Origin: Mustelus asterias
Taxonomy: Eukaryota
Direction of reading: 5' to 3'
Length of the DNA: 64,000 bases
NCBI RefSeq assembly: GCF_964213995.1
Contig: NW_027592019.1
Coordinates: 1-64,000 of the forward strand
Each line of letters opens with the position of its first letter. Position 1 is the first letter of the stretch. The notes beneath the pieces are model-generated. The model was given only the letters and a program-made list of their open reading frames with translations, was not told the origin of the DNA and searched no databases. The translations under genes and the position numbers were made by a program. This document shows positions 24,312 through 57,080 of this stretch, piece by piece.

Positions 24312-24326
24312 AGAAAGATCCAACAG

Positions 24327-33957: not shown

Positions 33958-34172
33958 CGGCACCGTCTCCGTCCACTCTCTACATATTGGTGTCCTCCTG
34001 TCGGCAACACAACGCCGACGGCTCCGTCACCTACGGCTGTTCGGCGATGGACTACTCCCCAGACGTCACCACACTGATCTGGAAGAAAGATGGGCAGCCG
34101 ATCACCACTGGATTTAAGACTTACCCGTCAGTGAGAAACACGAAGGGAACCTCCACCCTGAGCAGTTAACCA
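33958..34172 (+). pseudogene. IGHM: IgM CH1 exon, 5' part
   Basis: ttcccag acceptor; [69 protein letters not shown], then a frameshift/stop and the LINE insertion. Confidence 0.93.
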
Positions 34173-35121
34173 AAGAACAAAGAACAAAGAACAATACAGT
34201 ACAGGAACAGGCCCTTCGGCCCTCCAAGCCCGCGCCGCTCCCTGGTCCAAACTAGACCATTCTTTGGTATCCCTCCATTCCCACTCCGTTCATGTGGCTA
34301 TCTCGATACGTCTTAAACGTTCCCAGTGTGCCCGCCTCCACCACCGTGCCTGGCAGAGCATTCGAGGCCCCCACCACCCTCTGTGTAAAATATGTCCTTC
34401 TGATATCCGTGTTAAACCTCCCCCCCCACCCCCCTCACTTTGAACCTATGACCCCTCGTGAACGTCACCACCGACCTGGGAAAGAGCTTCCCACCGTTCA
34501 CCCTATCTATGCCTTTCATAATTTTATACACCTCTATTAGGTCTTCCCTCATCCTCCGTCTTTCCAGTGAGAACAACCCCAGTTTACCCAATCTCTCCTC
34601 ATAACTAAGCCCCTCCATACCAGGCAACATCCTGGTAAACCTCCTCTGTACTCTCTCCAAAGCCTCCACGTCCTTCTGGTAGTGTGGCGACCAGAACTGG
34701 GCGCAGTATTCCAAATGCGGCCGAACCAACGTTCTATACATATGCAACATCAGACCCCAACTTTTATACTCTATGCCCCGTCCTAGAAAGGCAAGCATGC
34801 CATATGCCTTCTTCACCACCTTCTCCACCTGTGACGTCACCTTCAAGGATCTGTGGACTTGCACACCCAGGTCCTTCTGCATGTCTAAACCCTTTATGGT
34901 TCTGTCATTTATCGTATAGCTCCCCCTACGTTAGCTCTACCAAAATGCATCACTTCGCATTCATCTGCCATTTCTTTGCCCAAATTTCCACCCTATCTAT
35001 ATCCATCTGTAGCCTCTGTCAATGTTCCTCACTATCTGCAAGTCCAGCCAATTTCGTGTCGTCTGCAAACTTACTGATCACCCCAGTTACACCTTCTTCC
35101 AGATCGTTTATATAAATCACA
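34173..35121 (-). mobile_element. 5'-truncated CR1 LINE inserted inside the CH1 exon
   Basis: (caaagaa)n tail at 34171-34193, ORF 34412-34882 with LVRPHLEYCAQFW, flanked by aacca at 34168-34172 and 35122-35126. Confidence 0.93.
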
Positions 35122-35207
35122 AACCATCACCGAGTCAGAGGGAGAATGCAGCAGAATCAACTGTGAGGTTCGACACTTCGGCTTAGTGAAGAGCATTGGA
35201 ATGCAAT
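35122..35207 (+). pseudogene. IGHM: IgM CH1 exon, 3' part
   Basis: TITESEGECSRINCEVRHFGLVKSIGMQ then t|gtaagt donor; supplies the second domain Cys (CEVRH). Confidence 0.9.
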
Positions 35208-35364
35208 GTAAGTATTGTGGAACCTGTGAGAAACAGAACAGCTAAACCTAAATTATAAGTTGTTTGATAGGGTCTTGGTTATAACAAATTTGTGGGACTC
35301 TGCAAAGTTATGTTCCTGCAAATTCGAGGTTATTGTCTACTGACATCAAAGTGCATTTGAACAG

Positions 35365-36400
35365 CAGAATCATCGACAATTTACAGTGTAGATAGAGGCC
35401 GTTCAGCCCATAGTGTTTTCACCAGCCAAAAAGTAAACTCTCCGTGCATTCCAATCCCATTTTCCAGCACCAGGTCATTGGCCTTGCCGGTTATAACACT
35501 TTACATATTGATACAAGAACCTTTTAATAATTTGCATATTTCAGCCTCATTCACCAACCTAGAAAGTGAATTCCAGATGTCCACTATCATCTGGGTGAAA
35601 ATGTGTTTCCTCATGTCCCCTCAAATCCTTCTACCAATCGTTGGAAATCTAACCCCCTACCCCACCCCCAGTAATTGAGCCCTCCACTCGAGGAATGAAT
35701 TATTTCCTGTTCACTCTGTGTAGGTCCCTCATAATTTTGTACACCTCAATTAGGTCATCCATCAGTATCCACTGTTAGAATGAAGATTACCCTCGCCTCT
35801 CCGAACTTTCATCAGATCTGCAATTTTCAAGCCCAAGTAACATTCTTGTAAATCTATCCTGAATTTCTCCATAATAATTATGACCTTCCTGCGATATGAT
35901 CCCCAGAACTGCGCACAAGCCAAAACTGTGGCTTAAACAGCATTTTAAACAGTTCTATCAAAATACCCGTGATTTTGTCATCAATAACTTGCCCAGTGAA
36001 TGAAAGCATTCAATATGATTCGTTTGACCATGTTGTCCTCCTGTGCTACATTGAAACATAGAAATAAAGAATTTTTGAGCAGGTGTAAGGTCCTTTGAGC
36101 CAGCTCTGCCATTCAATGCGATCATCACTGAACATCCAACTCAATAGCCTGATCCTCCCCGTTCCTCTCATGTCCTTTGACCAGTGGACATGCACGCAAA
36201 GTCTCACACTTGCTCAATCCCTCTCTATCTTTCTGTTTATTGAACACTCCTCTGCTTTGCTATCCCTCTCAAAAAATATCAACTCGGATTTTTCCAGATT
36301 AAATTCCATTTGTCACCTTTTTTTTGCACTCAAACAAACCATTGATATCATTCTGTTGTCCATAACTAGCCTGTTAAGGATACAAGAACTCGAACTGTTG
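35365..36400 (-). mobile_element. Old degenerate CR1 fragments in the CH1-CH2 intron
   Basis: Antisense CR1 signatures such as ccctcataattttgtacacctcaattaggtc, ccagaactgcgcaca and attaaattccatttg. Confidence 0.7.
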
Positions 36401-36447
36401 CTATTAATTTACTAATGAAAAGAACGCTGAACATGCATTTCTTGAAG

Positions 36448-36753
36448 GGAAAATCCCGCCAATCGTTATCCTCACTGTGAGTCCCAGTGAAGAAATCACA
36501 AGCAGGAAATTTGCAACCATCCTCAGTTCAATCATCGATTTCTAGCCAAAGTCAATGACGGTGAAGTGGCTGAAGAATGGACAGCCCATGGATTCAGGAA
36601 TTGTCATCTCTCCCGCCTGGGAAGTGAACAGGAACTTCTCAGCGAGCAGTCGGCTGACAGTCTCCGCTGGGGAATGGTTCAGCAACGCGGTCTATACCTG
36701 CCAGGTCACTCATCAAGGGCTCACCCACATTCAAATAATCATCGGATCTCTGG
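36448..36753 (+). pseudogene. IGHM: IgM CH2 exon
   Basis: [49 protein letters not shown]...[15 protein letters not shown]. First Cys is replaced by Ser; in-frame TAG at 36543-36545; g|gtatga donor. Confidence 0.92.
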
Positions 36754-37395
36754 GTATGAGACACAAACAATATATCATTTTGCACTCCGATGTTAATCAA
36801 AATCAGGCATTAATTAAAATTATTACCAAGCATAGAAAAATTTGGCTTAACTGCCATATAGTTTGTGTTTCATGTTGAAGTAAAAACCATATTTAGAGTT
36901 GGTCACCATTCAGGGTTTTAAAATAACAACAAGTGATATTTCCCTCTAGTTTGATATCAAAAAGTGGGACAGGTGGACTTGGTATCAGCTTTATCCTCAG
37001 ACAGTTGATAATATTTAGAGAGAGAGAGAGAGACAGTGGGCGTCTGACACTCTTGTACAGGTAATAACTTCAGGGTAAAATGTTGGAAAATGTCTTCATA
37101 TTATATATAAATCATCGGTCAGTACTGCCTTCTTGAGATCAGAAATGGTATATTTGCAATGCAGATTCATTAGAATGATACCGGTGCCGAACTACTTTAA
37201 CAATGAGAATAGTTTTCACAGACCAAGCAGGTTTTCCATTGTGTATCAAAGGTTGCGGTCGCCTTCAGTGGTGGTGGCAGTATCGTTGGTTAATATCTTA
37301 AAGTTGATTTATTTCTGTTTAGAAAGTGAAGGCTGAATACTGCTGTCCTGATGCTGAAGATGGAACTTGTGTTGATTTTCATTATTCATTCACAG

Positions 37396-37683
37396 ATCCT
37401 CCCCAGTGCCTTGAATCCACAGTGACGATACTGCCACCACCACTGAAGGCGACCGCAACCTTAGCCTGGGTCATTTCTAATGCTCCTTCTGGAGTCAACG
37501 TGTCCTGGATCCAAGAGAAGAAGCATTTGAAATCAGAGATTGCCGACCAGTCTGGAGAAGATTCTGAGGTCAGCAACTTAAACATCTCGACACAAGCCTG
37601 GCTGAGTGGGGCTGTGTTTGACTGCGTGGTGAGCCATCAGGATCTGCCGACTCCTTTCAGAAATACCATCCACAAGAAAACAG
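37396..37683 (+). pseudogene. IGHM: IgM CH3 exon
   Basis: cacag acceptor; [42 protein letters not shown]...[29 protein letters not shown]; first Cys replaced by Trp; g|gtgggt donor. Confidence 0.92.
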
Positions 37684-38162
37684 GTGGGTGGAGAGGTTGA
37701 AGTGATTAGTGAGTCATTGTTTCTATTTCGAGTGTAAATGCAAAGGTCAATATTTACTATTCAGTGTATTTCTGATTTATCCTGATTGGCATTTCCACTA
37801 ACCAAGCACTTTGTGCCTGGAGACTTTAAGGGGAGAATGAGAAATAGAAAAATGAAAAATGAATTGACGGCCATGGTGATGGTTTTAGATGGAATAAGGT
37901 GGGAGGAACCGAGTGTGAATCTTGAACACAAACACAGGCCAGCAGGACTGAATGGCCTGTATCGATATTGTTAACTTTATCAATATTTCGAGACCAACCC
38001 GCTAAGTGCTCAGGAAAAATATTTTTGTTCACCTCTGTTCTGAGCTGGGAAACTGGACAGGTCACAAAATGAAAAATGGAAACCTTTAAAATCCAACACA
38101 AAGCACATTTCTCTCATATCTGACCAGCGGTTTCATTGTATCCGGCATTTTCCAGTTTATTG

Positions 38163-38889
38163 TGTTACGATACTGTATCTTTATGAAATAGATTGCGCAG
38201 GATCTCTTGTAGCAGTTTGTTTTTCTATGATCGGAACTGCTCTGTCTGTACGCAGCAGCCTAATTGATCTTAATTGCTGCAATGTCTGTTTTGGTCTGAA
38301 CAAGTGCAGATTCTGTTCTTTTGTGTTTTCCCTTGGGATATTGCAAACTGGGGCTTGATTAGCTTGATGGATAGGTAAGGTCTTATGATTGAGTGAAGCT
38401 AGATTTCACAGAGAACTCAAGGCAGTTTGCTTTTGGGATCTTTAGGTCGAGGTTGCTTCCTCTGCAACTCTTGCTCTGTCTGAAGTGGAGACTGAAATCC
38501 GCCAAGAAATAAGCCTTTTTCTCCGGGATTCTTCTGTTTGGGAGTTGCTGCACGAGAATTAACAGACAGGTGTCTGTCTGGATCACTCTTCAGAAGTGTC
38601 AAAAGGCTGGAAATCTAGTGCCCATTTAAGCATCTGTTAACTAGCTGTTAAGAATTACATGATGCCGTATTTAAGTACTTTAATTGGTAAACTTATGCCA
38701 GTTCTTTTGGTTATTTTTGAACTGTGTTGTTAAATAATGTTTGTTTTGACAAAAGCTTCCTAGTGGGACACTTGAATCATACCTGGATTGAAACACCTTA
38801 TACTCACCCTAATGCCAAATCAGATGTCAAAGTTAGGGTCGAGGCTAACTTCATAAAATACCTTGGAATTTCATATCAGGTCCTTAACA
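38163..38889. mobile_element. Solo LTR (727 bp, probably Gypsy-type) in the CH3-CH4 intron
   Basis: Starts TGTTA and ends TAACA (terminal inverted repeat), flanked by a 4-bp direct repeat ATTG at 38159-38162 and 38890-38893. Confidence 0.8.
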
Positions 38890-38917
38890 ATTGACATTTA
38901 TTATACATTGTCTGCAG

Positions 38918-39303
38918 ATCCAAATCCGCGGGAACCATCCATCTTTATCCCCCTGCCCTCGGCAGAAGAAGCCTTCACTCAGAGATTCATTTACCTCAGC
39001 TGCTTAGTGAGAGGTTTCTCCCCCCCAGACATCTTCGTCAAGTGGACCGTCAATGGCAAGCTGGTGAATCCTGGGAACTACAAGAACACCGAGGTGGTGG
39101 CGGAGAACGGCAATAGCTCCTACTTCATGTCCAGCCTGTTATCCATTGCAGCAGAAGAGTGGGCCAGCGACATTTCTTACTCCTGTGTGGTGGGACAGGA
39201 AGCCTTCCCCTTGAAGACCATCATCAGAACGGCTAAGAAATCCAGCGGTAAACCCAGTTTTGTGAAGATTGCGCTGATGAACACCGTTCATTAATGTCAG
39301 TAA
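38918..39303 (+). pseudogene. IGHM: IgM CH4 exon plus secretory tailpiece
   Basis: tctgcag acceptor; [17 protein letters not shown]...[21 protein letters not shown]...[14 protein letters not shown]...[19 protein letters not shown]. Internal membrane-form donor g|gtaaa at 39247/39248. Confidence 0.94.
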
Positions 39304-39330
39304 AAATCTGTCGGTTGTGTTTCGAGACGC

Positions 39331-39345
39331 AATAAAAATAATAAA
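39331..39345 (+). terminator. Polyadenylation signals for secretory mu
   Basis: AATAAA at 39331-39336 and 39340-39345, about 30 bp after the tailpiece stop. Confidence 0.75.
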
Positions 39346-39774
39346 GTTTTTTTCCCCCTTCTACCTGTGAGATAAACATAAAACTTGCTCATTAATCTTG
39401 CTTCCAGTGTTAGCCACGAGAATAAAAACTGCTCCCCTGACGGAAGTTACTTGCCAGTCTCTTGCCTTAGGCTCAGAAAACCTGCGCTCCAAATTGCGTT
39501 GGAGCACCAAATAACGACAAATTGATGATAATTAATTCCATGATCCCGCTGAGTAACTTCAGCAACGTTCATCCAGTTACTGGTGATGTGCAGTCACTTT
39601 AAAATATAGACGATTCGTTTCTCGTGTTGTCAACTCCATCAAAGCTTTGATCACTTCTACGTTGCCGCATGGCGCCCAGTGGGAACTGAAGTCAAAGCAA
39701 CATAAGAAAAAGAAATGAAGCTATCCTCCCCCGCCGTCGCTGGGACACTGGTCTACTTAACCCACAGATACGCA

Positions 39775-40090
39775 CTTCCCAAACAGACAGGGGATAAAAG
39801 GAAATCATGAACTCACTGTCTTCCCACGTCTCCACTCACCCACCAGAGATTGTAAAGAAAATGGCCATTGTTAATCCATTATTCTCAATCTGTCATGACG
39901 AGAGACAGGAGAAAGGGCAATTGTTAACCCATTATACTGACTCTGGCACCAGAGAGAGAGGAGGAAGTGCTTTTGCTAGCCCATTATACTCACTCTGGCA
40001 CCAGAGACAGGGGTAAGGGCAATTGTAAACCAATTATACTCCGATCCGCCAAGCAGAGAAATTAGAAAGGAACCTATTATGTACACTCAG
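39775..40090 (+). repeat. Degenerate ~52-bp tandem repeat
   Basis: ccattatactcactctggcaccagaga...gggcaattgt recurs at ~39877, 39929, 39981 and 40031. Confidence 0.75.
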
Positions 40091-40349
40091 CTGCTATTGG
40101 TTCAAATCTGTTAAAAGTATGATGCATTAAATTCTAGCTACCCAAAACTTCACCAGTGAATGAAGCCCACCCGATTTTTCCTGTTCTAAATTTGAATTGT
40201 TCTTTCGTTCAGTTTGTTGTCACATTGCAGCTCACATTACACTACATGTCTTCAGAATGAGGCCACTATTCTGTTAATATACTCTGGCAGGGCCAGTTCC
40301 GGTTCATTGTACTCGGTGAAACTTGGAGCAGTAATGATCATTTTCAATT

Positions 40350-41000
40350 GCTGACACACAGAAAACAGATAAACACAGGCATGTATATCACCACAAACAC
40401 GCTCACAGACCGAGAAGCAAATACAAACGTAAACATCAATAAATCATTACCTCTCGCAAATTAAAAAAAAACCATTCGTTTAAGACGATCATACACATTG
40501 ACACACATACACTCGCAATAAAAAACTCAAACAGGCATTCACAAACACAGGCCAACAGATTCTCAGACCCAAGCATAGCCAAAATAGTGAGCATACTCTG
40601 ACTGTGAAAAACACCCATTAGCAGACCCATTGGCAGAAAGCGAGAGATACAAATGATTCAACACATATGTGCGCACATACACATGAGTGAAATCTATATC
40701 AAATGTACACACAAGGACAAAAACATTACAATATTCATAAACACACCGGCACACAAACTGAGTCATAAACATATGAACATATGAGCCCACAGTAACACAC
40801 TCAATAACACCTAAATATGGACTCCAGCACATAAACACTCACTGCCTAACATTAACAGTCAAATACACACACAAGCAGAAATATTAAAACATACATTGAT
40901 GCATAGGAATGGACAAACATAAAATATGCCCATTGACGCGGACTAATAAATACACATAATGCACATCATTTTCATATGAAAACATTAACAATCAAATATT
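40350..41000 (+). repeat. Degenerate CA-rich low-complexity tract (a similar tract lies at 33285-33470)
   Basis: Dense acac/cata motifs. Confidence 0.7.
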
Positions 41001-41027
41001 CATATGGTAGTACAGAAGTTGCGTATC

Positions 41028-41500
41028 GCTGAAAAGGAGACATGTTGAAGCTGTACATATTGCACTCACCAGGCTCTTCACAAGAATAATAAATATAAAA
41101 GAAACACCAATTTATAATTCTTCGGAAGAAAGTGGTGAGTGTTGTGCAACTAACTGTGTTAAAAGCTGCTTTTCAGACAGAAATAACTGTACAGACATTG
41201 TGTCTGTTCCATCTGAACAAAGTAGACGACAGAACACTCTGATTCATTCCTCAGAGCAATGTCTTCACCAATCAGGGTTAAAGTGCCTTGTCTGAATTTA
41301 AACAAAGCTTGGCAGTTAACTGTCAACCAACGATTCACAGGTACATTCGCCCTGGAACCCCTCTACCAATCACAGTTTACTTGCCAACCAATCTGGACTC
41401 TTTTGTCATGAAGTATAAATTATTGCTGCATTTACATTTGATCTTCGTACAATTGTCCTCTGACTGCAAGATGGGAAGCTTCGAAAAGTCTCTTTTTCAC
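41028..41500. mobile_element. Degenerate element with inverted termini, probably Penelope-derived
   Basis: Left arm gctgaaaaggagacatgttgaagct...ttgcactcaccagg is roughly the reverse complement of right arm gtcctctgactgcaagatgggaagcttcgaaaagtctctttttca. Confidence 0.55.
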
Positions 41501-41894
41501 ATATTTATATGGACATGCGCGCACGTAACACCTTCCCACACACAGGGACACACAATCAAAGAATAAAGCAGGTCAGCATTATCCTCCTACACACATATAC
41601 AAAGACTAAAACACAAACCAAAACGGAAGGCTATAGGGACAATTAATATTGAAGTCGGTTTCCTAAGAGACACATTTTGTAAAACGTGATTTCAATACAT
41701 ATTGGCCTGTCAAAGGCTGAAAACGTTCTCCTTTAGAAACTGACGTGAATAAATTATTTGCCAAACCTACACAAACAAAAAATGTAATTCTTCCGATCTA
41801 TTACCTGTTATCATTTACAATACCACAATAAATGGCTATCTGTACTTTTCTCTAAAATCTTCTTGGTAGATCAGGAGTAAATAGAAAATACTAT

Positions 41895-42245
41895 CAGTGA
41901 CACAGTTGTTAGCTCTGCTGCCTCACAGATGCAGGGACACCGGTTTAATTCGGGCCTTAGGTGGCTGTCTGTGTGGAGTTTACACATTCTTCCTGTGTGT
42001 CTGCATAGGTTTCCTCTGAGTACTCTGGTTTCTGCCCACAATCCAAAGATGAGCAGGTTAGCTGGATTGATGTTGCTAACTTGCACGTCGTGTCCCAAGA
42101 TATTTAGGTTACATGGATTAGCCATGGGGAATATGAGGAGTTACGGGGATATGGCGGCAGAGAGCTTGGGTAATGCACCTTTGCCAAGAGTTGGTGCAGA
42201 CTTGATGGCCGAATGGCCTCTTCTGGACAGTAGGGATTATATGAC
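41895..42245 (+). mobile_element. HE1-like SINE, degenerate
   Basis: cacagttgttagctctgctgcctcacag head; ctgtctgtgtggagtttacacattct V domain. Confidence 0.8.
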
Positions 42246-43286
42246 TAGACAAGAGGCCAAATGTGAGTTACTTTAATATTTAATACGATCATGCCTGATA
42301 TTGCGTCCTACTCCAATTTCCCACCCATTCCCCATGTCCTTTGCTTACCTGAAAAACCAAAAGTATGTCTACTTCAGCCCTAAACATATTCCACAGTGGG
42401 CAACAGTCCTCTAGGGCAAATAACGTCCGAGATTCATAATCCTAAGTAAGGGAGTGACTCCTTATCTCAGCCCTAAAATACAACCCACATATCCAAAGGC
42501 TATGCCCCATTATTGTGGATTCCAGAACCAGAGGAAACAATCTCTCAGTGTCTGTCATGTCAAACCCATTGGGATGATTTCGTTTCAATGCGATCTCCTC
42601 TAATTCATTTGAAGTAGAGAGAATACGCTCACAACGGCAGACACCGGCGATGCACAAATGGAACCAGAGGCAAAGGTCGAGCTGGTAGAGATGATCCAGT
42701 ATCCTCTGGGGAAGAGGCTCCAAAGATTCATAATCATAATAAAGGAATGCCTCGTCATCTCAGACCTAAGTTAACTCATAATTATCCAAGGGATATGCCC
42801 TTTGGAACCAGCGGAAACGACATTTCAGTGTCTAGCTTGTCAAATCCTTTCGGATTATTTTGTTTCCATGTGATCTCCTCTCATTGTTCTAAGCTGGGGA
42901 GAATGTAGACCCAAGTCACTCAGTCCATATTAGTTAACTTCACCTGTTTAGTCTTCAGAGTATTGTTTAGTGACAGTTGGCAGAAAATTACACCAGACTA
43001 AATGGACGCCTAAGATTGAGGAATAACATGTATTTGCGAAAACGGGCTGTATGAGGAAAATAAAAGAAGAACGGTTGTGGACATTGTAACACCTTATCTT
43101 GCTGAGAGAGGTTAACTTAATAATATATGTATTGAAAATTGCATTATGCGATTAAGTTAATAACAGATAGGATTGAAAATTATATCAGAAAACAACATAA
43201 TACCTTGAAGAAATAAAAGACGAGCAACCAAAATAATAACCTAGGTTAACAGAAGAACTAAAAGTGTCCCCTATATCATCCCGTAG

Positions 43287-43414
43287 ATTCCACAGAGTCC
43301 ATCAGGATTGCAGTCAAGGAGGATGATAACAGCAACATCTGGACAACCGCTTCTACATTCATAGTCCTGTTCTTCCTAAGCATGTCCTACAGCGCTGCAG
43401 TCACTCTGTTGAAG
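43287..43414 (+). pseudogene. IGHM: IgM transmembrane exon TM1 (open frame)
   Basis: cccgtag acceptor; (D)STESIRIAVKEDDNSNIWTTASTFIVLFFLSMSYSAAVTLLK|gtgaga carries the conserved antigen-receptor TM motif (WTTASTF..LF.LS..YS..VT). Missed by the ORF track. Confidence 0.93.
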
Positions 43415-43906
43415 GTGAGATGATTCAATCTACTCACATTTGAATCAGATAGGAGAAGATTGAAAAATGTCCAGAAGTCTCAATTAATAAGAGCTTTCAG
43501 TTAAATGTCTCAAAGACATAAAACGGCTGTTTAGTCATTTTATTTCTCTTTGGAGGTGGAGTAATTGATTGAGTTTCGGAAATCGTGTGGTATTTACCCA
43601 TCCGTTTATTCACAAAATGGTGCTGTGGAATTAAAGTACGTTATCATCGTGATCCTCAAAGTTATAGTGCCTCCAGTGAACAGATCCGAATCCAAAATCG
43701 AGGTTGCAATATAAGCTGGATTTCTGTTACTTTTTTTTAATTGAATGAGATAATCATGTCGATAGTATGATTGTATCTTTGAGTGTCGCCATTGTTTGAA
43801 TTGATTTGTAAACTAATGATGATGTTAAAATGCCGGCATTGGACTGGAGTGTGCACAGTAATAAGTCTCACAAAACCAGGTTAAAGTGCAACGGGTTTAT
43901 TTGATA

Positions 43907-43943
43907 TCACAAGCTTTCGGAGCGCTGCTCCTTCATCAAGTGA
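43907..43943 (-). ncRNA. Minimal type-I hammerhead ribozyme motif (degenerate)
   Basis: Minus strand reads UCAC-UUGAUGA-A-GGAGC-AGC-GCUCC-GAAA-GC-UU-GUGA. Stems I and II are perfect; one core change (CUGAUGA to UUGAUGA). Confidence 0.7.
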
Positions 43944-43944
43944 G

Positions 43945-43981
43945 TCACCTGATGAAGGAGCAGCTCTCCAAAAGCTCATGA
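43945..43981 (+). ncRNA. Minimal type-I hammerhead ribozyme motif (degenerate)
   Basis: UCAC-CUGAUGA-A-GGAGC-AGC-UCUCC-AAAA-GC-UC-AUGA. CUGAUGA is intact, GAAA is changed to AAAA. Confidence 0.65.
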
Positions 43982-44820
43982 TACCAAATAAACATTTTGG
44001 GCTTTAACCTGGTGTTGTGAGACTTCGTATTGTTAATTAGTCGTTATTTCTCATTAGCATTGTTCACTGCATTTTATGTCGAGGCCCCGTTTTTTTCTCT
44101 CCAGTTTGAGATAGTTTTAGACAATTGGCTGTTTAAACGATCAATATTCTGTTCTCATTGTGACGCTCAGTTTGTATATTCACCTGGGGTCAACTTTAAA
44201 TTATATGTTTCCATAAAGTGTTCTCTATGAAATTGTAAATAAATCTTGAATTACAAAGTACGTAATGTCGAGGTTGTTAACTGCCTAGCTGCACGACATA
44301 TCCTAATTGCGCTATTTTCAAAACCGAACGCCCCTTCTCTCATGCCGCCGCTTTTAACCCACACAGCTTTTTATTCAATCCTGTTTGGATTTTTATCGAA
44401 CCTACTACACTTCAGTGAAGGAGCCGCTGTGTCACCCAGTGTTCCATCTACACCTGCCTTTTGTTATAAAGTGGCGGAAGCTGATTGACGGCACAGTCAG
44501 CATTTCTGACTTTTTCACATAATAGCCTGTCACATTCACATATCGGTTTCCATGACAGAGCAGGGGCATGCTGACCTGACTGAATGCACTGTATTGAAGC
44601 ATGCGGTTAATTCTGCATTGTCCCATCAAATATCCCCAAGGCAGACATGGCACTACATTCGAACCGAACGCTGACACACCAGGAATCACAAGCCACGGGA
44701 ATGATTCTCAGAGCCCGGAGCAGAACTCATGCGAATAATTTAATATCCAATTCTCCCATAAAGATACACACTTAAGTTCTCCACTCTTCTCTGGGGCACA
44801 ACAAGGCTGAGGTGGGACCT

Positions 44821-45095: not shown

Positions 45096-45096
45096 C

Positions 45097-45385: not shown

Positions 45386-45388
45386 ACA

Positions 45389-45662: not shown

Positions 45663-47762
45663 ATTCTGCAACAATATCAATGTAATTGAAGGCAAACGTT
45701 GTTTTTGTGGTTTGCATGGTGACGTGGGTGAGTGGGTCTAATGCACTCGATGACGACTCTAGTCTTGATGGACGTATGTTTTTGACTCCCACTCCTGCCA
45801 AAGTTTATTTTGTTTAGATTTTAAATCTTTTCAGTCAAGCCATTGGAGTGGATAAGTAGCAGCATAATTTTAAGTGGATTGTACGATGTTTTAATTTGCC
45901 GTGGAGAACAAGGAGAGACAACACGAATTTGAACTGATGTGGAAAAGGGAGCGTGTGTAGAACCAGTTAAAGTGATCTTCCAGTGAACTGACATGGACAA
46001 GATGGGCGGAATAGCGAGCTGCTCTCCTGCAGCCAAGATGATATTATATGAAAAGCACGTGCATGACCATGTATTTGAGTATTTGAGGACTGGTGGTTTC
46101 GGCGATGAATTAGAAATCCTTCGGGGGTGAGGGTGTTCTGCCCACACATATTCCAATCCTGCCGATATTACTGAGGATCGGCCAAGGCTCGGGAGTTCAG
46201 ATGCCCTATATCTTCTCCTTTGCTTATGTACCATTGCAGTAAAAACAACAGCCAAGGCAAGTGTTAACTGTTCAATCAGCGGGGAAGAGTCATCTACGAT
46301 GCTGTAAATCATAGTTTGAAGAACAGCTGAACGATTGAAGAACAATTGAGCGAAGTTAGTGGCTTTCTTGTGTACTGGATGCATGTCTCTCCTCAGGCCT
46401 CGGTCACTTCCGGTGTACATGTTTTTGTGTGTTCCTCCAACTATGTCAATGCAGCTCAGTTCTCCATTTTTACCAATCTAAATATTTTTTTCACATTAGG
46501 TAAACAGCATCATATGAATGTGCTTTTCAGATAAAACAATAAATGCACATCGTTAAAGAGGAATTGATTTCGGTTTCATTTTGAGAGGAGATTCTTCAGT
46601 GTCTAAGTGAAAATGGAAAGTTTCAATGCTCCTTACTTTGTAGCAACATTTGAGCAATGTTGGTCAACAATGGGCAACATTTAAATGTTGGCACTGAATC
46701 ATTGTGGTGAATGCTTGACTCAATTCGTTTGTAAAGTCCTTGGATCTGCACCTTAACTGCTGTAATTTGCAGGGCAATAAGCCGTGTGCAGGAAAATAGG
46801 ATTAGAACCGGTGTCCTTGGATCAGCATGGAAAGAATCGGCCAAATGCCACTTCTGTTCTGTATCATTTCTATGGTTCTATCTTTCCATGGATACATCGA
46901 GAGGATGAATGTGTAAATAGCCCAAACAGAAATTCCTGTGGTATTGGGATTTTATAAAATGCGTTCAGGGGATGTGGGGATCGCTGGCCTATTCACAACT
47001 GCCCTCCATTTCGGAGGGTATTTCAGAATCAGCTGCATTGTTGTGGGTCTGAAGTCACATGTAGGCTAGACGAGGTAAGGACATTACCTTCCCTAAAGGA
47101 CATCAATGAACCAGACCGGGTTTTACGACAATCGTTTCATAGTCATCATTAGACCTTTAATTCCATATTTTTGAATTCAGTTGTCACCATCTGCCATCGT
47201 AGGATTCGAGCACGTGTCTCCAGACCATTACAGTGGGTTTCTGGATAATTAATCCAGTGACAATACCTCCAGGCCACCACCTCCACATTTTGATTGCGGC
47301 CATACCTCAACAACTACAGGAAAACAAAAGCTCAATCGCAAATGTTACAGGAACAGAAAGCCTATTATTACCGTGATAGCTTCGAATGTCCGAAGTTATT
47401 TTCTTCGATGGGCTGGTAGAAGGGAGGGAAGCAGCAGAGGCAACTGATCAGGTTGTCTCAATCTTAGTGACAAGAACGCTCCATGAGCTCCTCACTCTTG
47501 TTGTTGGAGGTGAGGATGGAGAAGACAAGGGAGATATTGAAAGAGCGAGTACACTATGTTTAACATTACTTTGAAATTTTATCAAAAATGTCAGCACCCA
47601 TGATTGGGCGGTGGTTGATTAACATCGTCAGAAACATACCTCCGAAAGCTGTCAGGAGCCAATTAAATACTTTCATGTTGCAATGTACGAAATGCAGCGG
47701 CAAATATGCACTTAGCATTATTTTTTTTAAAAATAGGAAAATGGAACAGATAAGTGTATCAA

Positions 47763-50143
47763 TATAAGACCATAAGACCATAAGACATAGGAGCGGAAGT
47801 AAGGCCATTCGGCCCATCGAGTCCACTCCACCATTCAATCATGGTTGATTTCAACTCCATTTACCCGCTCTCTCCCCATAGCCCTTAATTCCTCGAGAAA
47901 TCAAGAATTTATCAATTTCTGTCTTGAAGACGCTCAACGTCTCGGCCTCCACAGCCCTCTGTGGCAATGAATTCCACAGACCCACCACTCTCTGGCTGAA
48001 GAAATTTCTCCTCATCTCTGTTCTAAAGTGACTCCCTTTTATTCTAAGGCTGTGCCCCCGCGTCCTAGTCTCCCCTGTTAATGGAAACAACTTCCCTACG
48101 TCCATCCTATCTAAGCCGTTCATTATCTTGTAAGTTTCTATCAGATCTCCCCTCAACCTCCTAAACTCCAATGAATATAATCCCACGATCCTCAGACGTT
48201 CATCGTATGTCAGGCCTACCATTCCTGGGATCATCCGTGTGAATCTCCGCTGGACCCGCTCCAGTGCCAGTATGTCCTTCCTGAGGTGTGGGGCCCAAAA
48301 TTGCTCACAGTACTCCAAATGGGGCCTAACCAGTGCTTTATAAAGCCTCAGAAGTACATCCCTGCTTTTGTATTCCAAGCCTCTTGAGATAAATGACAAC
48401 ATTACATTTGCTTTCTTAATTACGGACTCAACCTGCAAGTTTACCTTTAGAGAATCCTGGACTAGGACTCCCAAGTCCCTTTGCACTTTAGCATTATGAA
48501 TTTTGTCACCGTTTAGAAAATAGTCCATGCCTCTATTCTTTTTTTCAAAGTGTACGACCTCGCACTTGCCCACGTTGAATTTCATCAGCCACTTCTTGGA
48601 CCACTCTCCTAAACTGTCTAAATCTTTCTGCAGCCTCCCCACCTCCTCAATACTACCTGCCCCTCCACCTATCTTTGTATCATCGGCAAACTTGGCCAGA
48701 ATGCTCCCAGTCCCATCATCTAGATCGTTAATATATAAAGAGAACAGCTGTGGCCCCAACACTGAACCCTGCGGGACACCACTTGTCACCGGTTGCCATT
48801 CTGAGAAAGAACCTTTTATCCCAACTCTCTGCCTTCTGTCTGACAGCCAATCGTCAATCCATGTTAGTACCTTGCCTCGAATACCATGGGCCCTTATTTT
48901 ACTCAGCAGTCTCCCGTGAGGCACCTTGTCAAAGGCCTTTTGGAAGTCAAGATAGATAACATCCATTGGCTCTCCTTGGTCTAACCTATTTGTTATCTCT
49001 TCAAAGAACTCTAACAGGTTTGTCAGGCACGACCTCCCCTTACTAAATCCATGCTGACTTGTCTTAATCCGACCCTGCACTTCCAAGAATTTAGAAATCT
49101 CATCCTTAACGATGGATTCTAGAATTTTGCCAACAACTGAGGTTAGGCTAATTGGCCTATAATTTTCCATCTTTTTTCTTGTTCCCTTCTTGAACAGTGG
49201 GGTTACAACAGCGATTTTCCAATCCTCTGGGACTTTCCCTGACTCCAGTGACTTTTGAAAGATCATAACTAACGCCTCCACTAGTTCTTCAGCTATCTCC
49301 TTTAGAACTCTAGGATGTAGCCCATCTGGGCCCGGAGATTTATCAATTTTCAGACCTTTTAGTTTCTCTAGCACTTTCTCCTTTGTGATGGCAACCATAT
49401 TCAACTCTGCCCCCTGACTTTCCTGAATTGTTGGGATATTACTCATGTCTTCTACTGTGAAGACTGACGCAAAGTACTTATTAAGTTCCTCAGCTATTTC
49501 CTTGTCTCCCATCACTAGATTACCAGCGTCATTTTGGAGCGGCCCAATGTCTACTTTTGCCTCCCGTTTGTTTTTAATGTATTTAAAGAAACTTTTACTA
49601 TCATTCCTAATGTTACTGGCTAGCCTACCTTCATATTTGATCCTCTCCTTCCTTATTTCTCTCTTTGTTATCCTCTGTTTGTTTTTATAGCCTTCCCAAT
49701 CTTCTGACTTCCCACTACTCTTTGCCACATTATAGGCTCTCTCTTTTGCCTTGATGCATTCCCTGACTTCCTTTGTCAGCCATGGCTGCCTAATCCCCCC
49801 TCTGATAACCTTTCTTTTGTTTGGGATGAACCTCTGCACTGTGTCCTCAATTACTCCCAGAAACTCCTGCCATTGCTGTTCTACTGTCTTTCCCATTAGG
49901 CTCTGCTTCCAGTCGATTTTTGTCAGTTCCTCCCTCATGCGCCTGTAATGACCTTTATTTAACTGTAGAACCTTCACATCTGATTCTGCCTTCCTTCTTT
50001 CAAATTGCAGACTGAATTCTACCATATTATGATCACTGCTTCCTAAGTGTTCCCTTACTTTAAGATCTTTTATCACGTCTGGCTCATTACATAACACTAA
50101 GTCCAGAATAGCCTGTTCCCTCGTGGGCTCCATCACAAGCTGT
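47763..50143 (-). mobile_element. Very young 5'-truncated CR1 LINE with an uninterrupted ORF2 from the endonuclease end through RT
   Basis: Open frame from QLVMEPTREQAILDLVL...SDHNMVEF through GVPQGSVLGP/KFADDTK to AGKWS*; (ataagacc)n tail at 47763-47790. The N-terminal ~80 aa of the listed 843-aa ORF is flank read-through. Confidence 0.96.
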
Positions 50144-50359
50144 TGTGAAATAAAGAATAATTGTATCCCCTGGAAGCTGGAGAGGCCACTTTCTGTTCTT
50201 TTTGCTAATTGCGACCGGGTAACCTTGTGTATTCCATCTGGGACGGCAGACACAGTGTTTTTTTGTAAGTATTTTAAGGGCAGGAAGGTAGCCAGAGAAA
50301 GAATGGGAGCATTTGGGGCCAAAGTGGCAATCTGTGTGTGAAACTGAAGCTGTAGGTAA

Positions 50360-52035
50360 GATATTAAATGGATATTTTGCATGTGTTCACCATGGAGAAG
50401 CGGGATATAGGTATATAAAGCAAGGAAAAGACTGATGAAATTGAACAGATTGATATTGAGAGGAAGGAGGTCTTAGCCGTTGTAACGGGTTTAAAAGTGG
50501 ATAAATCTCCAGGCCCAATCCTCGGCAGCTGTGTGAGGCAAGGGCGGAGATTACAGGGACCTGGCACTAATTTTTATAACTTCCCTGGCTAAAGCCGAGA
50601 TGCCAGAGGGGAAGAGGACAATTAATGCGGCACCATTATTCAATAAAGTGTGCAGGGGATAAAAACAGATCATTTCCGGCCTGTGAGTCTAATGTCAGGG
50701 GAAGAGAAACTATTGGACACATTTCTGAGGGACAGAATTAATCACCACTTGGTGAGGCAGGATTAACCGAGTGAAGTCATCATGGCTTTGTCAGGGGAGA
50801 TCGTGCCGGAGAAATATGACTGAAACTTTCGAAGAGGTGACTAGAATTGTAGATGAGAGAAGTGCAGTTAATGTGGACTAAATGGACTTCAGGCTTTTGA
50901 CAAGATCGCAAATGGGAGCGTGATCAAGCAGGTAAGAACGCATGATATTCAGAGCAATTTGGCAAATTGGATCCAAAATTGGCTGAGTGGCAGGAGGCAG
51001 AGGATGATGGTCGAAGGTTGTTCCTGTGACTGGAAGCCTGTGTCCAGTGGTGTACTGCAGGGATCGATGCTGGGCCCCTTGCTGTTTGTCGTGTACATTA
51101 GTGATCTAGAGTTGAATGTGAAGGGGAGCCAGCGGTGGATGATCAGTAAGATTGCAGGTGAAACAAAAATAGTGTTGTGGTAAACGGTAAGGAGGAAAGC
51201 CATAGATTACCAGATGATACGGATGGGCTGGTCAGATGGGCAGAAAAGAGGCAACTGGAATTGAACTCTCAAAAGCGTAACGTCATACATTTTGGGAGGG
51301 CTTACAAGTCATGGGAATGCACAATGAACGGTAGGACGTTTGGATGTACAAAAAAACCATAGAGTCCTTGTGGTCCATATCCAAAGATTCGTGAAGCCAG
51401 CAGGACAGATAGATGAAGTGGTTAAGAGTTCACATGGTGTACTTGCCTTTATTAGCAGAGGCATAGATGAAAAGAGCACAGAGTTTATGCTGGAGCTGAA
51501 TAAAACTCTCATTATGCCACGGCTAGAGTACCATGTGCATTTCGGTTCGCTGCACATACAGATGTGGTTGTAGTAGAAAGGATATTAAGGGGATTCAACA
51601 GGATGCTGCCTGGGCTGAAGTTTTCAGCGATGAAAAGAGGCTGGATAGGCTGGGATTATTTTCCTTAAAGTGGAGAAGACTGAGAGGAACCTCACTGATT
51701 TGTACCAAACTATGAGGGAAATAGATAATCCAGATGAGAATAACTATTCCCCTTAGTAGAGGTGTCAATAACCAGCGGCATCGACCTCAGGAAAGGAGCA
51801 TGATATTGAAAGGGGACCTGCAGAAAAACTTTTTAGCCAGAGGGTGGCGGGAATCGGGAACTCACTGCCTGAAAGTATGGCAGGGGAAAGAACCCTCACA
51901 TTTCAGAAGCATTTAGATGAACATTTGAAACGTCATAGCATGCAAGGAAGCGAACCAACTGTTGCAAAATGGGATTTGATTCTATAGGTGTTTTATAGCC
52001 GAAGGGCCTCTTTCCATGCTGGAAATCTCCATCAC
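50360..52035 (+). mobile_element. Old degenerate CR1 LINE (RT region to 3' end)
   Basis: WIQNWLSGRRQR, SGVLQGSMLGPLLF and PRLEYHVHFGS motifs with many stops. Confidence 0.88.
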
Positions 52036-52232
52036 TACATATCTCCTCCAGGAAGTTAGCAACTGTGATAACTCAGCATTCATTCAGAGCAACAACGGGG
52101 GCTGTGGGCACTGTATTATGAGCGTTAAATCTCTCAAGTCCTGTATCTGAAGCCCAATAGTGTCTGATTCCAGAGAGACGGAGTACACATTGATCTAAGT
52201 AGATGAAAGCCAAGCACGTGCTGATGTGTATT

Positions 52233-54416
52233 TTAGCCAGTGAGCGTGGTGAAGGGGCATAGCAGAACCTTCTTCAGGTCCTCTCGGAACTTGGTCTGGG
52301 CGACTGTGTAAATGAAGACGTTGTTGCAGGAACTGACTAGCTGGAGCATGTTTGCTGCTTCCTGAAGGATGTACCGTGGGTCTTTGAAATCCAGGCTGGT
52401 GCGGTAGCCCTCACCTGTAATCCGCACATAGAGGAAATGTACGACATAGGTGACCCAGAGGAGGAGGAAGCTGAGGGAGATGGCGAAGAGCAGGATGATG
52501 GACCTCTTGCGGTTGGCCATCTCTGGGTCCCCGTGACTCTCCGTGCCCCGGAGTCTCCTGCGGGCTCTGCTGGCCGCTAAGATGTGTTTAACGGTCAGCG
52601 CGTTAAGAAACAGGATGAGCAGGAACGGGAGAAACGGAGTTAAGATGTGGTCCAGCCAGTCATAGGCCTGCCAGGCGGGCACCGTGTAATAGCTGGACTT
52701 AACAGCACAGAACCAGGGCACCCCGTCCAGGGTGTACAAGGGCTGGTAAGTGAAGTAGAAAGGGACATTCCTGACACAGCTCAGGGCACAGACTATTCCT
52801 ATAACCAGCAATGCTGCTTTCTCGGTGCAGTATCTGGCCTTCAGGCCCTGGCAGCAGATGGCCACAAAACGGTCGATGGTGAAAGCCACTGTCAACCAGA
52901 CGGACATATCCCGGGCAAAATAGACCAGCAGAGCGCTGAGTGTGCATGCGGGGGTGGTAGACAGGACGCTGTTCTGAAAGTAGATGCGGCCAATCCGGTT
53001 GAGGATTATGGCGGTGATGATGACAAGGAAATCAGTCAATGCTATCGCGATCAGGTAGTAGGTGATGCACCGTGACAGTCCGCACCGTCCTCGGGATAAG
53101 ATTACGATCGTCACCAAGTTGGCTGTGAGATAGAAAGAGACAGAGAGATGTGTTACCGAGAGCGCTCGAAACACCAGCTGCTGCGCCATCCAATCAGTTA
53201 CTGAAAACATCCTCATCCTTCACTTTGCCAACTCCAGACTCCAGTGATTGCAAAGTCTTTGGCAATGGTCCGACATTCAAAACTGGATTCAAGTTATTTT
53301 AAATCAGGAGACATTGCAATCAGTCCAAATTGTAACTCTGCCCTCTGGTCACTGAGTTGATCCCCTCAGATAACTATCAAATTTCAGATTCTCAGAAAAT
53401 TTGCTGTCGTTGTTCTTATTCGTACCAATCCCATCCACCCATCAGCCCTATCGGCTGCCATTCAGGCTGCGTCTCTGTTTTTTATAATCTCGTCCTTCGA
53501 ATTATAAATCCCTCCATAATCTCGCCTTTCCAGATTTTGATAACATGCTACAACTATCTGAGATCACACCATACCTCCGAGTGTGGACTTCCATGACCCT
53601 GATTTGATCTTTTCAGTTTGCCTTTACGTGCCGAGACCCTAACCTCTGGAACTTCTTCTTTCAAAGACTAAACTTTCCCTTTGTGCTTCAAGGACGATCC
53701 TTAGAAAATAAATTCGTTGAACAATTCTAAGTCATTTTGTCGGTCAGTATAAAGTTGATTTGTTAAAGTCTTGTGAAGTATCCCCATTCTAGTTATCCGA
53801 GTGTCTGAAGAAACAAACGCTACATCGCCTTCTCAAATGAAAGCTAGATATGGACAAGTCATATTCGCCTTGCCATATCTGCATGCATACAGCTAGTGAT
53901 TAAAAATATAATTATCCGAAATTTACCAGACTTACTAACACAAGACAAAATGCATAATGCATAACCCCCACACCTTTTTCAAAAGTTTCAATAATTCAAT
54001 CTTAAAACCTCAGTAACGATGTGGGCAGCCCAGTGCCGCCTCACTACAAATCAACGATTACTAACTGCTGGAGGTCACAGCATAGGTTCATGTAAGCAGT
54101 GAATGAATGTTCTATGTCAATGCATCTAATTGAATTATTAGATTGCGATAGCTCATTTTCTGAGACTGTACATACCAGTGGATGAAATATAGGTCACTTT
54201 ATAGACTTTATCGTGCAAAACACTGAAAACACTAGATCGCATTTTACTACATTCGAATAAAACCGAATTTTCAACAATAAAAGGCTAATGTTTATGCAAC
54301 GCCATACATTTCAAGTCATGAGACTTATTTGGGATCTTTCACCTACCAGGAACACCAATGGCAGCGAGAATGGGATAAAAAATGGCGAAGAAGAGACCTT
54401 TTGCTGGTCCATGCAT
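52233..54416 (-). CDS. Intact two-exon class A GPCR, GPR139/GPR142-like (exon 1 54416-54347, exon 2 53122-52233; 319 aa)
   Basis: Exon 1 MHGPAKGLFFAIFYPILAAIGVP g|gtaggt; acceptor tctcacag|cc aac gives ...VPANLVTIVILSRG. Seven hydrophobic segments, LTD in TM2, FTIDRFVAIC, RYCT, FLP, NVFIY; no stops. Confidence 0.92.
53345..53800 (+). mobile_element. Degenerate L2-like LINE 3' fragment in the GPCR intron (another L2-like relic at ~47420-47540, -)
   Basis: cccatccacccatcagccct...aaatccctccataatctcgcc...ctctggaacttc pattern; heavily diverged. Confidence 0.45.
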
Positions 54417-54613
54417 CCTCTCCCAGAAAGTGAAATGAAGCTTAAACCTGAGCTCTGCGGTGGTTTCATAGCGTCTCACATTTATTCTGAGTGAGCGTCT
54501 CCAGAGGAATAATTAAGTTAGAGCCTGCACCTTAGTTACAGGCCGGTGAACAAACAGATTCGCTCACTGTTGGGTACCTCCACATTGCACCATTGGCAAG
54601 GGGGATGATTCCA

Positions 54614-54620
54614 TTATATA
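54614..54620 (-). promoter_or_regulatory. Candidate TATA box of the GPCR gene
   Basis: TATATAA on the - strand about 200 bp upstream of the exon-1 ATG. Confidence 0.45.
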
Positions 54621-55564
54621 CTGAGCCAAACTCTGCTTGCTCATTCCATGGTTACATCCACCTCCCACAAACCATGCCTTTGTGTCTACATCAAGAACAG
54701 CAGGTGAGGGGAGATATTGATCTGGGCTCTAATCTCAAATTCAAAGACCGTCTCTTCCGATTTCTGCCAGGTGCCCAATTACTTCTTGCTCACAGATATC
54801 AGATTAGTTCGGCACTTATTTCCTTCTGAGAGTTTTGGACACAGAAAATAGACGCATGAGTAAGCCATTCAGCATTTTGAGTCTACTTCGCCCTTCATTT
54901 TGATCATGAGTGATCATCAAAATACTTTCCTACTCCCTAATTCTTTTTACTAGATATACATCTGAAATATCTGAAGTCACTATGACCGTTTTGCTCTCAC
55001 ACTCACCGAACACAGGATGGATTTCACAGAAATGACAAATGATAACTGAGGTTAATATGCTATAACAAGTGATACAATGAACCCATTTTCCCATCTACAA
55101 ACAGCAAGCGAAACAATTTTCACGCACAGAATTCATCGTGGACTTTTAGTTTTATTGTTTTGGGTGAAATAATTGCCATCATGCATTGTATTTATTTGAT
55201 TTTCCCACAGAAAACTCGGTCATCTAAAGTTTTGTTATAGTGAAGATTTGTAAATCATATTTGGAGGAGTAAGCTTGATGAAAGTCAATTAAGCTAAATC
55301 ATTTTAACGGTAAGTGTTCTCTCTGGTCACAGCTTGCAGCAACTTTATGAATTGAATCTGTTTTTCATTATAACTTGAACATCAATTCCAGCATGCTTGA
55401 CTCTCGTTGTCACAATTGCTGTTGAAGCTAATATTGCCGCTATTGTTGCTGAAATCATTGTTGTCGGCGCCTCTCTGGCCACAACTCGCACAACAAATTC
55501 CAACAACAACAATCTATCTGATATTTTCAGTGATGCTGCTTGAGAGCTAATGACAGGCCCAGGA

Positions 55565-56340
55565 CAGATGGAAGGAATAAGTTGACAAGGAAATATTTAA
55601 TTAATGGCATGACACCAGGAAGTTCAGTGGAACAAAGGGACCTTGGCGTGGTTCTGCACAGATCTCTGAAGACGAAAGGGCATGTTAGTAGGGTGCTGAA
55701 AAAGGCAAATGGGACAATTGCCTTTATCAATCGGGGCATAGATTAAAAAAGGAGGGAGGTCATGTGAAAGTTGTGTAGAGTTGGTAAGGGCCCAAGCTAG
55801 AGTATTGTGTGCAGTTCTGGGTGACACATTATCGAAAGGATATGATTGCACTGGACGGGATGCAGAGGAGTTTCACCAGGATGCTGCCTGGGATGGAACA
55901 TTTAAGTTATGAAGAGTTTCCATAGGCTTGTGTTGTTCTCGTTGGAGCAGAAAAGACTGAGGGGCGACCTGATCGAGGTGTACAAGGTTATAAGGGCCAT
56001 GGACAGAGTGGATAGGGAGCAGCTGTTCCTCTTATTTGAAGGATCAGTCACGAGGGAACACAGATTCAAGGTGAGGGGGCTAAGGTTTAGGAGGGATGTG
56101 AGAATTTCTTTTTTAACTGGAGGGTGTTGACAGTCTGGAATGCTTTGCCTGAGAGGGTGGTGGAGGCGAGTTGCCTCACATCCTTTAAAAATTACCTGGA
56201 TGAACATTTGGCACATCATAACATTCAAGCCTATGGGCCAATTGCTGGTAAGTGGAACGTCAATGTTTCTAGCGTGTCAGTACAGACTCGATGGACCGAA
56301 GGGCATCTCCTGCACTGTATGGTCCTATGATTCTATGAAA
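55565..56340 (+). mobile_element. Degenerate CR1 3' fragment
   Basis: EQRDLGVVLHRSLK and RLRGDLIEVYKVI motifs; ctatgattctatga tail. Confidence 0.88.
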
Positions 56341-56623
56341 TCTGCAATGATTTTCTGAAAAAGAAGTCTGGGATATTTTACAGAAATGAAGTGTGTGTCC
56401 CTAAGATTAAGGTCTGATGCGAAATATGACAACCATTGCTGGCACGCCCTCGATGCTGCCACTCGGCAACAGCCTGGATTACAGGCTGAAGTCTCAGGAG
56501 TGAGCCTTGACCCTAAAACTTTGTAACTCAGAAGCAGGACTAACAGATTCTGAACAGGACAGTCACTTACAGAGCAACGAAGGTTCCTGTGATCTTGAGA
56601 GAACGCCTGTTCGTCGGCCCTGA

Positions 56624-56662
56624 GGTTTTTGTTCAGAGACAGATAAGTTTTAAACCACTGCG
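56624..56662 (-). promoter_or_regulatory. V(D)J recombination signal sequence, 23-bp spacer
   Basis: Minus strand CGCAGTG (heptamer with an A2G change) + gtttaaaacttatctgtctctga (23 nt) + ACAAAAACC (perfect nonamer), directly 3' of the V exon. Confidence 0.92.
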
Positions 56663-57080
56663 ATTTTCAACCCATCGAAATAGAAGGCAGTGTTCTGGAT
56701 TCCTGTTCGAATGATCTTTAAGGGAAATCTCTTTTCTGTCTTACTCTGACCAGCCTCGAATCATCCCTTGGTAAAAACTGTGATTGTTCTTCGACTGTTA
56801 TCCCGAAGTAAACTAAAACTCAGAAAGTAGTTTGTGTGCTGTCTGTGCCAATACAGATCAGGATTAAAGAGATTTGTTTTATAAGTACAATCTGTAATCA
56901 CACTGTCTCCTTCAGTCACGTAGAGTTCTGTCTTGGATTGTGATACCGAATCTGCGCGAATCCTCCCTGAAATAAAAATGAACGTTGGGTTGTGATGGAA
57001 GTATGACATAAGTACATACGGCCATACGTACCGAGTACAAACCACAATATAATGAGATGACGGGACGACATGGGATCCAT
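56663..57080 (-). pseudogene. T-cell receptor alpha/delta-type V segment pseudogene (leader 57080-57032, V exon 56966-56663)
   Basis: Leader MDPMSSRHLIILWFVL g|gtacgt, 65-nt intron, tttcag| acceptor. V reads RIRADSVSQSKTELYVTEGDSVITDCTYKTNLFNPDLYWHRQ...KG*FEAGQSKTEKRFPLKIIRTGIQNTAFYFDGLK. DSVSQ/EG.SV..CTY/LYW.RQ is TRAV/TRDV-like. In-frame TGA and loss of the second Cys. Confidence 0.88.

Follow-up and report, generated by a model that had tools for sequence, protein, structure and literature searches.

The window, a stretch of 64,000 nucleotides that contains no N bases, carries an IgM constant-region gene (C-mu) on the forward strand (33958-43414) and a T-cell receptor (TCR) V unit of alpha/delta type on the reverse strand (57080-56624). 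Both genes are pseudogenes, and they face each other across 13,209 bp, in agreement with the facing arrangement and separation of about 13 kb claimed in an earlier note on this DNA. LINE matches or within-window repeats cover 26,337 of the 64,000 bases.

The C-mu gene has the organization of a shark IgM constant region, in which four C1-set exons in the order CH1-CH4, all scoring above the Pfam C1-set cut-off, are followed by a secretory tail and a TM exon, and AG/GT splice sites can be read directly from the sequence at every exon. CH1 is interrupted by a 5'-truncated, reverse-strand LINE (34173-35121; E 6e-77 when the LINE ORF of the window served as tblastn query). This element is 86-93% identical to other LINE copies within the window, and AACCA occurs on either side of it (34168-72 and 35122-26) as what appears to be a 5-bp duplication. 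The 5' part of this exon (33958-34172), preceded by an acceptor AG, is 55/68 identical to Triakis IgM (C1-set 2.6e-06), and the 3' part (35122-35207), which ends at the donor GTAAGT, is 23/29 identical to residues 207-235 of the same protein. Just ahead of the LINE lies a TAA (34167-34169), which a loss of 4 nt would explain, as suggested by the absence of residues 205-206 relative to the reference. CH2 (36448-36753; 72/98 identical to Triakis IgM; C1-set 4.4e-16) contains a TAG stop at 36543-36545 and has Ser in place of the first Cys, while CH3 (37396-37683; 70 of 95 aligned residues identical to Triakis IgM; C1-set 9.8e-06) has lost 5 and 2 aa in frame and has Trp at the first Cys position. 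The exon of CH4 and the secretory tail (38918-39303; 89/119 identical to Triakis IgM; C1-set 5.3e-19) has an open CH4 frame and an internal donor after 39247, and comparison of tails places its stop, at 39292-39294, short of the Cys-Gln end. The TM exon (43287-43414; 32/42 identical to Scyliorhinus IgM model P0003) is open as well and would read KVR-stop when unspliced; a strict pattern found no second TM exon across 43.4-56.6 kb. The C-mu exons that the earlier note had placed on the forward strand, ending at 43414, are therefore confirmed, from CH1-CH4 through the tail to the TM exon with its splice sites. Its description of a full C-mu holds for the exon set, TM exon included, but not for a working gene, given the stop, the LINE, the frameshift and the lack of VDJ.

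No VH was detected in the window by an HMM built from seven IgM V regions (best score 3.3 bits over six frames), and the same 64 kb yielded no JH primer match at ≤3 mismatches, no 12-RSS at ≤2 mismatches and no IgM D segment. The locus is thus not a functional IgM minicluster, as the VH, two D and JH with RSS that such a cluster has within about 10 kb ahead of CH1 are missing and the C exons, taken together, are neither open nor provided with both cysteines. TCR constant exons are likewise absent from the window, where the C1 HMM matched the C-mu exons alone, and neither a second TCR V nor a TCR D or J was found in it.

On the reverse strand, the V unit begins with a leader exon (57032-57080; ATG at 57080, donor GT) that matches the leader of horn shark model P0037, and a 65-bp intron separates it from the V exon (56663-56966). 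The V exon is followed by a 23-spacer RSS (56624-56662), consisting of the heptamer CGCAGTG (56662-56656), a 23-bp spacer and a perfect nonamer ending at 56624. Two 23-spacer RSS matches occur in the window at ≤2 mismatches, against 0.09 expected by chance, and the other one is inside a LINE remnant. With a leader set apart by an intron and a 23-spacer RSS behind the V exon, the unit has the organization of a TCR alpha/delta V, and the splice sites, spacer and nonamer support the leader-V-23RSS unit originally proposed for 56624-57080. The unit is not functional: the V exon contains an in-frame TGA at 56763-56761 and has lost its second Cys (YFDG for YFCG), and the heptamer has CGC in place of CAC. 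The CAC of the heptamer is required for RAG cutting.

By sequence, the V is a TCR alpha/delta-type segment and belongs to the lineage of human TRDV3. Human TRDV3 is its top solved-structure match (4.3e-13), and the best 60 of 382 such matches are all TCR chains (alpha, delta and alpha-containing single chains, with two named TCR only). A HMMER search with the V gave 220 matches at E ≤0.001, 150 of them listed, whereas a search for homologues by shared words, also with the broken V as query, yielded no candidate. Among the matches listed, the closest V models are P0037 (57% identical) and P0038 (52%) of horn shark. A tree whose rows included six IgM VH, but no labelled shark TRAV, NAR-V, TCR beta/gamma or IgL, places the V with V models of horn shark (support 98/81 and 97/88) and away from the IgM VH, to which it is at most 29% identical in short local alignments. 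It falls within a 19-row clade (99/95), and human TRDV3 is the best TCR match of both members checked, P0035 and P0101. The TRAV/TRDV-type assignment made earlier is borne out by the structure matches and by this separation from IgM VH. The TRDV3 V lineage has shark members, at least two of them in horn shark; literature searches on TRDV3 and sharks listed no paper reporting this, although the NCBI label TRDV3-like exists for a white shark model.

Two other identities were considered for the V. A TAILV or IgH-like V was rejected, since it scores 2.6 bits (E 5.4) with the VH HMM versus 76 bits with the TCR-V HMM. The supporting V-delta of a NAR-TCR pair is leaderless and lies downstream of a NAR-type V; such a pair was rejected, as the window holds a single V domain with a leader of its own and 6.9 kb upstream of it. 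Protein atlas labels are limited to a generic V-set.

Between the two receptor genes, LINE or repeat sequence accounts for 5,543 of the 13,209 bases, including a reverse-strand LINE copy (47765-50472) with an open 873-aa frame and a reverse transcriptase domain (RVT_1 7.6e-33). The interval also contains a two-exon gene for a GPR139-like class A GPCR of 319 aa on the reverse strand (54416-54347 and 53122-52233; 7tm_1 7.5e-22). This gene is intact, with an open spliced frame, and its best solved-structure match is GPR139 (5e-10), followed by the neurotensin receptor (8e-09); judged by title, no paper on a shark GPR139 expansion was found. Words of 52000-57300 were present at 56-62% in four of 21 listed sequencing runs (three samples, one study), with no RNA holders listed, and these unaligned matches bear neither on linkage nor on expression. 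Elsewhere, viral envelope remnants suspected at 9.4-12.7 kb were dropped because the four ORF pieces tested had no Pfam match; a tandem repeat with a 58-bp unit, now decayed, makes up part of this region. Six single ORFs searched belonged to no Pfam family, a search that small unrelated exons could escape.

An antigen receptor complex (AgRC) in which clusters of IgH genes have V exons of TCR alpha/delta between them has been described by Flajnik et al. 2025 (PMC12227049). In the chromosome-level assemblies of four elasmobranchs, complete IgM C genes, some of them membrane-form or pseudo models, are interleaved with TCR alpha/delta V (PMC12227049). Table S1 of that study lists some white shark IgM C models, membrane-form included, as 'IgM pseudo?' or 'IgM (missing V)', and one white shark region contains a 'TCRadV pseudo, TRDV3-like'. 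Distances computed from this table, which covers annotated models only, place a TCR V within 65 kb of five of the nine IgM C models of white shark, with 28.4 kb as the shortest distance; none of the nine nearest pairs has a 3', facing V, and all are more than 13 kb apart. The TRDV3-like pseudogene has the same orientation as an IgM pseudo model and is located on its 5' side, 54 kb away. Hence the novelty once claimed for an Ig-TCR linkage that includes C-mu is not supported. The proposed region of mixed Ig and TCR genes, or its dispersed duplicate, remains the likeliest setting for an IgM constant gene and a TCR alpha/delta-type V, and the proposal is probably right, although the window offers no second TCR segment; it is not new, because the arrangement is in print. 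The accompanying premise that mammals keep their B- and T-cell receptor loci unlinked is loose, because IgH and TCR alpha/delta share human chromosome 14 (PMC12227049).

It is likely that the window preserves a broken IgM C gene and a broken TCR V from a shark complex of interleaved IgM miniclusters and TCR V, as leftovers of duplication. IgM cassettes lying among a TCR V array would have undergone repeated segmental duplication and loss, leaving a C-only block here, and this block and the V would then both have decayed. The facing orientation would have no present function, because the RSS of the V lacks CAC, the V encodes a stop, and C-mu has no D-J to receive it. Lesions in both genes, the absence of VH, JH and 12-RSS from the window, the published interleaving with its pseudo and V-less IgM models, and the grouping of the V with horn shark models support this origin. 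One TCR V in 64 kb with no TCR D, J or C counts against it, since by itself the window then gives no placement in the complex, and so do the white shark pairs, all wider apart and none of them facing in this way, and the shark Ig genes outside the complex. A less probable account, though one to be taken seriously, is a dispersed orphon, in which C-mu without VDJ, the GPCR gene and one TCR V were copied out of the complex as a block and now lie elsewhere, as a second-hand record of linkage. The single V, the missing VDJ and the share of LINE or repeat bases in the window are consistent with it, and not all shark Ig genes sit inside the complex (PMC12227049); however, the white shark complex itself contains single, sparsely placed V genes as well as IgM models lacking a V (PMC12227049), and the GPCR gene of the block is intact. 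That an assembly join through a LINE copy united two unlinked pieces is highly improbable, since, despite the repeats in the interval, among them a 2.7-kb LINE copy whose frame is open, N bases are absent from the window and a like neighbourhood is published from four chromosome-level assemblies (PMC12227049).

The V, which is of the TRDV3 lineage and lies inverted on the 3' side of a constant gene, also resembles mammalian TRDV3 behind C-delta. An inverted V-delta in that position is conserved in mammals (PMC2275272; PMC3457774), and the facing layout could be ancestral and once functional, with the inverted V joining the D of an upstream cassette by inversion to give a TCR-V/IgM-C chain. The shared geometry and the TRDV3 affinity of the V and of the two clade members checked favour this, but it is hardly to be expected: the family has at least two horn shark members, the white shark TRDV3-like pseudogene is 5' of its IgM model in the same orientation, none of the nine nearest white shark pairs faces likewise, chance alone gives facing in one of four layouts, and here a GPCR gene intervenes and D-J is absent. 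The broader idea that the layout predates mammals and extends beyond TCR-delta, so that shark IgM cassettes can have a 3' inverted V of the TRDV3 lineage which joins IgM D-J by inversion and yields reverse chimeras, antibody heavy chains with a TCR V, and the window is a decayed copy, is equally far-fetched; if intact IgM clusters did carry such a V and express TCR-V antibodies, the layout would matter much more. The resemblance is probably due to chance. As leftovers of an interleaved complex, the two pseudogenes would add one more shark case of the published Ig-TCR interleaving, closer spaced than the listed models, and make birth-and-death decay of both gene types visible side by side.

Compared with known systems, C-mu shares the CH1-CH4, tail and TM order of shark IgM miniclusters, with 73-81% identity per exon to Triakis IgM, and differs by its lesions in CH1, CH2, CH3 and the tail. 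In nurse shark (PMC2435157), VDDJ lies 6.3-6.8 kb ahead of Cmu1 in a V-D-D-J-C minicluster, whereas the window has no VH, D or J in the 33.9 kb upstream of C-mu. Mammalian inverted V-delta genes (human TRDV3, opossum TRDV6) share with the V its lineage, by best match and tree, its inversion and its place 3' of a constant gene. The conserved TRDV3 position, between C-delta and the J-alpha array, is nevertheless not the one found here, where the upstream constant gene is IgM, a J-alpha array is lacking downstream, the V has become a pseudogene and a GPCR gene lies between. With the AgRC, the window has in common that IgM C genes, which in the complex include pseudo, V-less and membrane-form models, are only tens of kb or less from a TCR alpha/delta V, and a TRDV3-like pseudo V is listed for white shark; the gap of the window is 13 kb rather than the 28 kb of the nearest listed pair, its V is 3' of C-mu and facing, and its placement in the complex is putative. 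Shark IgH-V/TCR-delta trans-rearrangements, TAILV and NAR-TCR are, like the window, attributed to Ig-TCR proximity. These known chimeras set an Ig-type V on TCR-delta D-J-C, whereas the window pairs a V that is not Ig-like with an Ig C, both of them dead.

The window is vertebrate DNA, rich in repeats and without N, and the best protein matches of its Ig exons come from sharks and rays. An IgM constant region (Cmu) on the forward strand and a TCR alpha/delta-type V unit on the reverse strand face each other, 13,209 bp apart. This observation is real and was correctly read in the earlier note, whose coordinates for both parts held when exons, splice sites and RSS were re-read; both parts are pseudogenes, and together they are an example of a known arrangement.

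Five Cmu exons lie in order on the forward strand, each with normal splice sites: CH1 (33958-35207), whose two halves share 55/68 and 23/29 identical positions with Triakis IgM, CH2 (36448-36753; 72/98), CH3 (37396-37683; 70/95), CH4 with the secretory tail (from 38918; 89/119), and the TM exon (43287-43414), identical to a Scyliorhinus model at 32/42 positions. The gene is dead. CH1 is interrupted by a ~950-bp LINE fragment that shares 86-93% identity with further copies within the window and is apparently flanked by a 5-bp target duplication; 4 nt appear to have been lost directly before this fragment. The first Cys is replaced by Ser in CH2, which also contains a TAG stop codon at 36543, and by Trp in CH3, which is further shortened by two in-frame deletions. 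A stop precedes the Cys-Gln end of the secretory tail, whereas the reading frames of CH4 and the TM exon are unbroken. A 38-bp part of CH3 (37425-37462) recurs inverted in the preceding intron (37249-37286), and, because this copy spans the junction of the 5-codon deletion, it likely formed later than the deletion. The CH4 query also had a 74% identical match in P0010, a protein of 232 aa whose 742-bp contig is assigned to Aeromonas veronii, likely because of host contamination.

In the window, full-length IgM queries found no IgM V at E up to 1, an HMM built from 7 IgM V regions gave at most 3.3 bits for VH, a JH primer was unmatched at 3 mismatches, no 12-RSS was found at 2 mismatches, and a C1 HMM (116 domains) detected only the Cmu exons. 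Several decayed direct repeats (0.2-1 kb, 72-82% alike) at 23488-26992, 7-10 kb upstream of CH1, sit roughly at the expected VDDJ position. Farther upstream, a decayed 58-bp tandem repeat (8991-9223) is followed by AT-rich DNA whose short open frames (9400-13500) have no Pfam match.

On the reverse strand, the V unit opens with a leader (57080-57032), which a 65-bp intron separates from the V exon (56966-56663); a 23-spacer RSS (56662-56624) follows. It is a dead TCR alpha/delta V: a TGA interrupts it at 56763, the YFC of its relatives is replaced by YFDG, and its heptamer starts with CGC; RAG requires CAC. Its typing in the earlier note is borne out, as TCR chains make up the best 60 of 382 matches among solved structures (human TRDV3 top, 4.3e-13) and a tree sets it far from VH. 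Among the matches listed from 1.84 billion representatives searched, its closest relatives are two horn shark gene models, P0037 (57%), which also shares the leader, and P0038 (52%). The tree (99 columns) held 52 rows picked by likeness to the query: besides the window V itself, these were the top 45 V domains by score among 150 listed hits, plus 6 IgM VH, with labelled shark TRAV, NAR-V and light chains outside its scope. The window V grouped with P0037 (98/81) and P0038 (97/88) in a 19-row clade (99/95), and TRDV3 was the best TCR match for both other members checked. The two horn shark genes look intact, belong to the human TRDV3 lineage and are named only 'uncharacterized protein'. A TCR-V HMM (151 domains) found no further TCR V in the window, and a tandem array of ~32 31-bp units (60164-61144, 77% matches) gives weak RSS-like matches.

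Between Cmu and V, LINE or within-window repeat accounts for 5,543 of the 13,209 bases, including a LINE copy (47765-50472, -) whose unbroken 873-aa frame contains reverse transcriptase; this copy is probably recent and would have enlarged the distance between the two. The gap also contains a GPCR gene (54416-52233, -), intact in both its exons, whose 319-aa product is nearest to GPR139 among solved structures (5e-10). The relics are therefore not neighbours in a tight cassette; a literature search found nothing on GPR139-like genes as a regular component of shark antigen receptor regions. The arrangement is most likely non-working, because V cannot yield protein, its RSS is damaged and Cmu is without D-J.

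Flajnik et al. (PMC12227049) describe TCR alpha/delta V exons situated between IgH clusters. Their table for white shark chromosome 27 lists nine models with an IgM C region; three carry the mark 'pseudo?', two carry 'missing V', and the names of several specify the membrane-bound form. It also contains a 'TCRadV pseudo' whose label reads TRDV3-like. When the models are set against the 29 TCR or NARTCR V rows of the table, five of the nine lie no farther than 65 kb from a V, the minimum being 28.4 kb. The earlier note had stressed the linkage of a Cmu with TM exon to a TCR V; since the table shows such models near TCR V, this linkage was already in print. Likeness to this map suggests that the window probably lies inside the antigen receptor complex, and by the same likeness a copy dispersed from the complex seems rather unlikely. 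In the simplest history, IgM cassettes would have been duplicated and lost among TCR V genes, with decay and LINE insertion following.

We consider it highly improbable that the pair is an old C-then-inverted-V unit able to yield TCR-V antibodies through inversion. Mammals retain an inverted V-delta behind C-delta (PMC2275272, PMC3457774), and the window V, of that same lineage, lies 3' of Cmu and faces it. However, horn shark carries at least two copies from this V family, in white shark the TRDV3-like copy lies on the 5' side of an IgM model and in the same orientation, the GPCR gene separates the two parts, and chance alone gives facing orientation in 1/4 layouts.

Compared with the white shark, the Cmu-V gap is shorter than in its nearest pair, and in 0/9 of its nearest pairs does V lie 3' of Cmu and facing, unlike here. 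In the nurse shark minicluster (PMC2435157), VDDJ lies 6.3-6.8 kb ahead of Cmu1, whereas the 33.9 kb upstream of Cmu here are without VDDJ. Known shark chimeras place IgM or IgW V on TCR D-J-C (PMC5931798); relative to these Ig V plus TCR combinations, the window holds the reverse pair.
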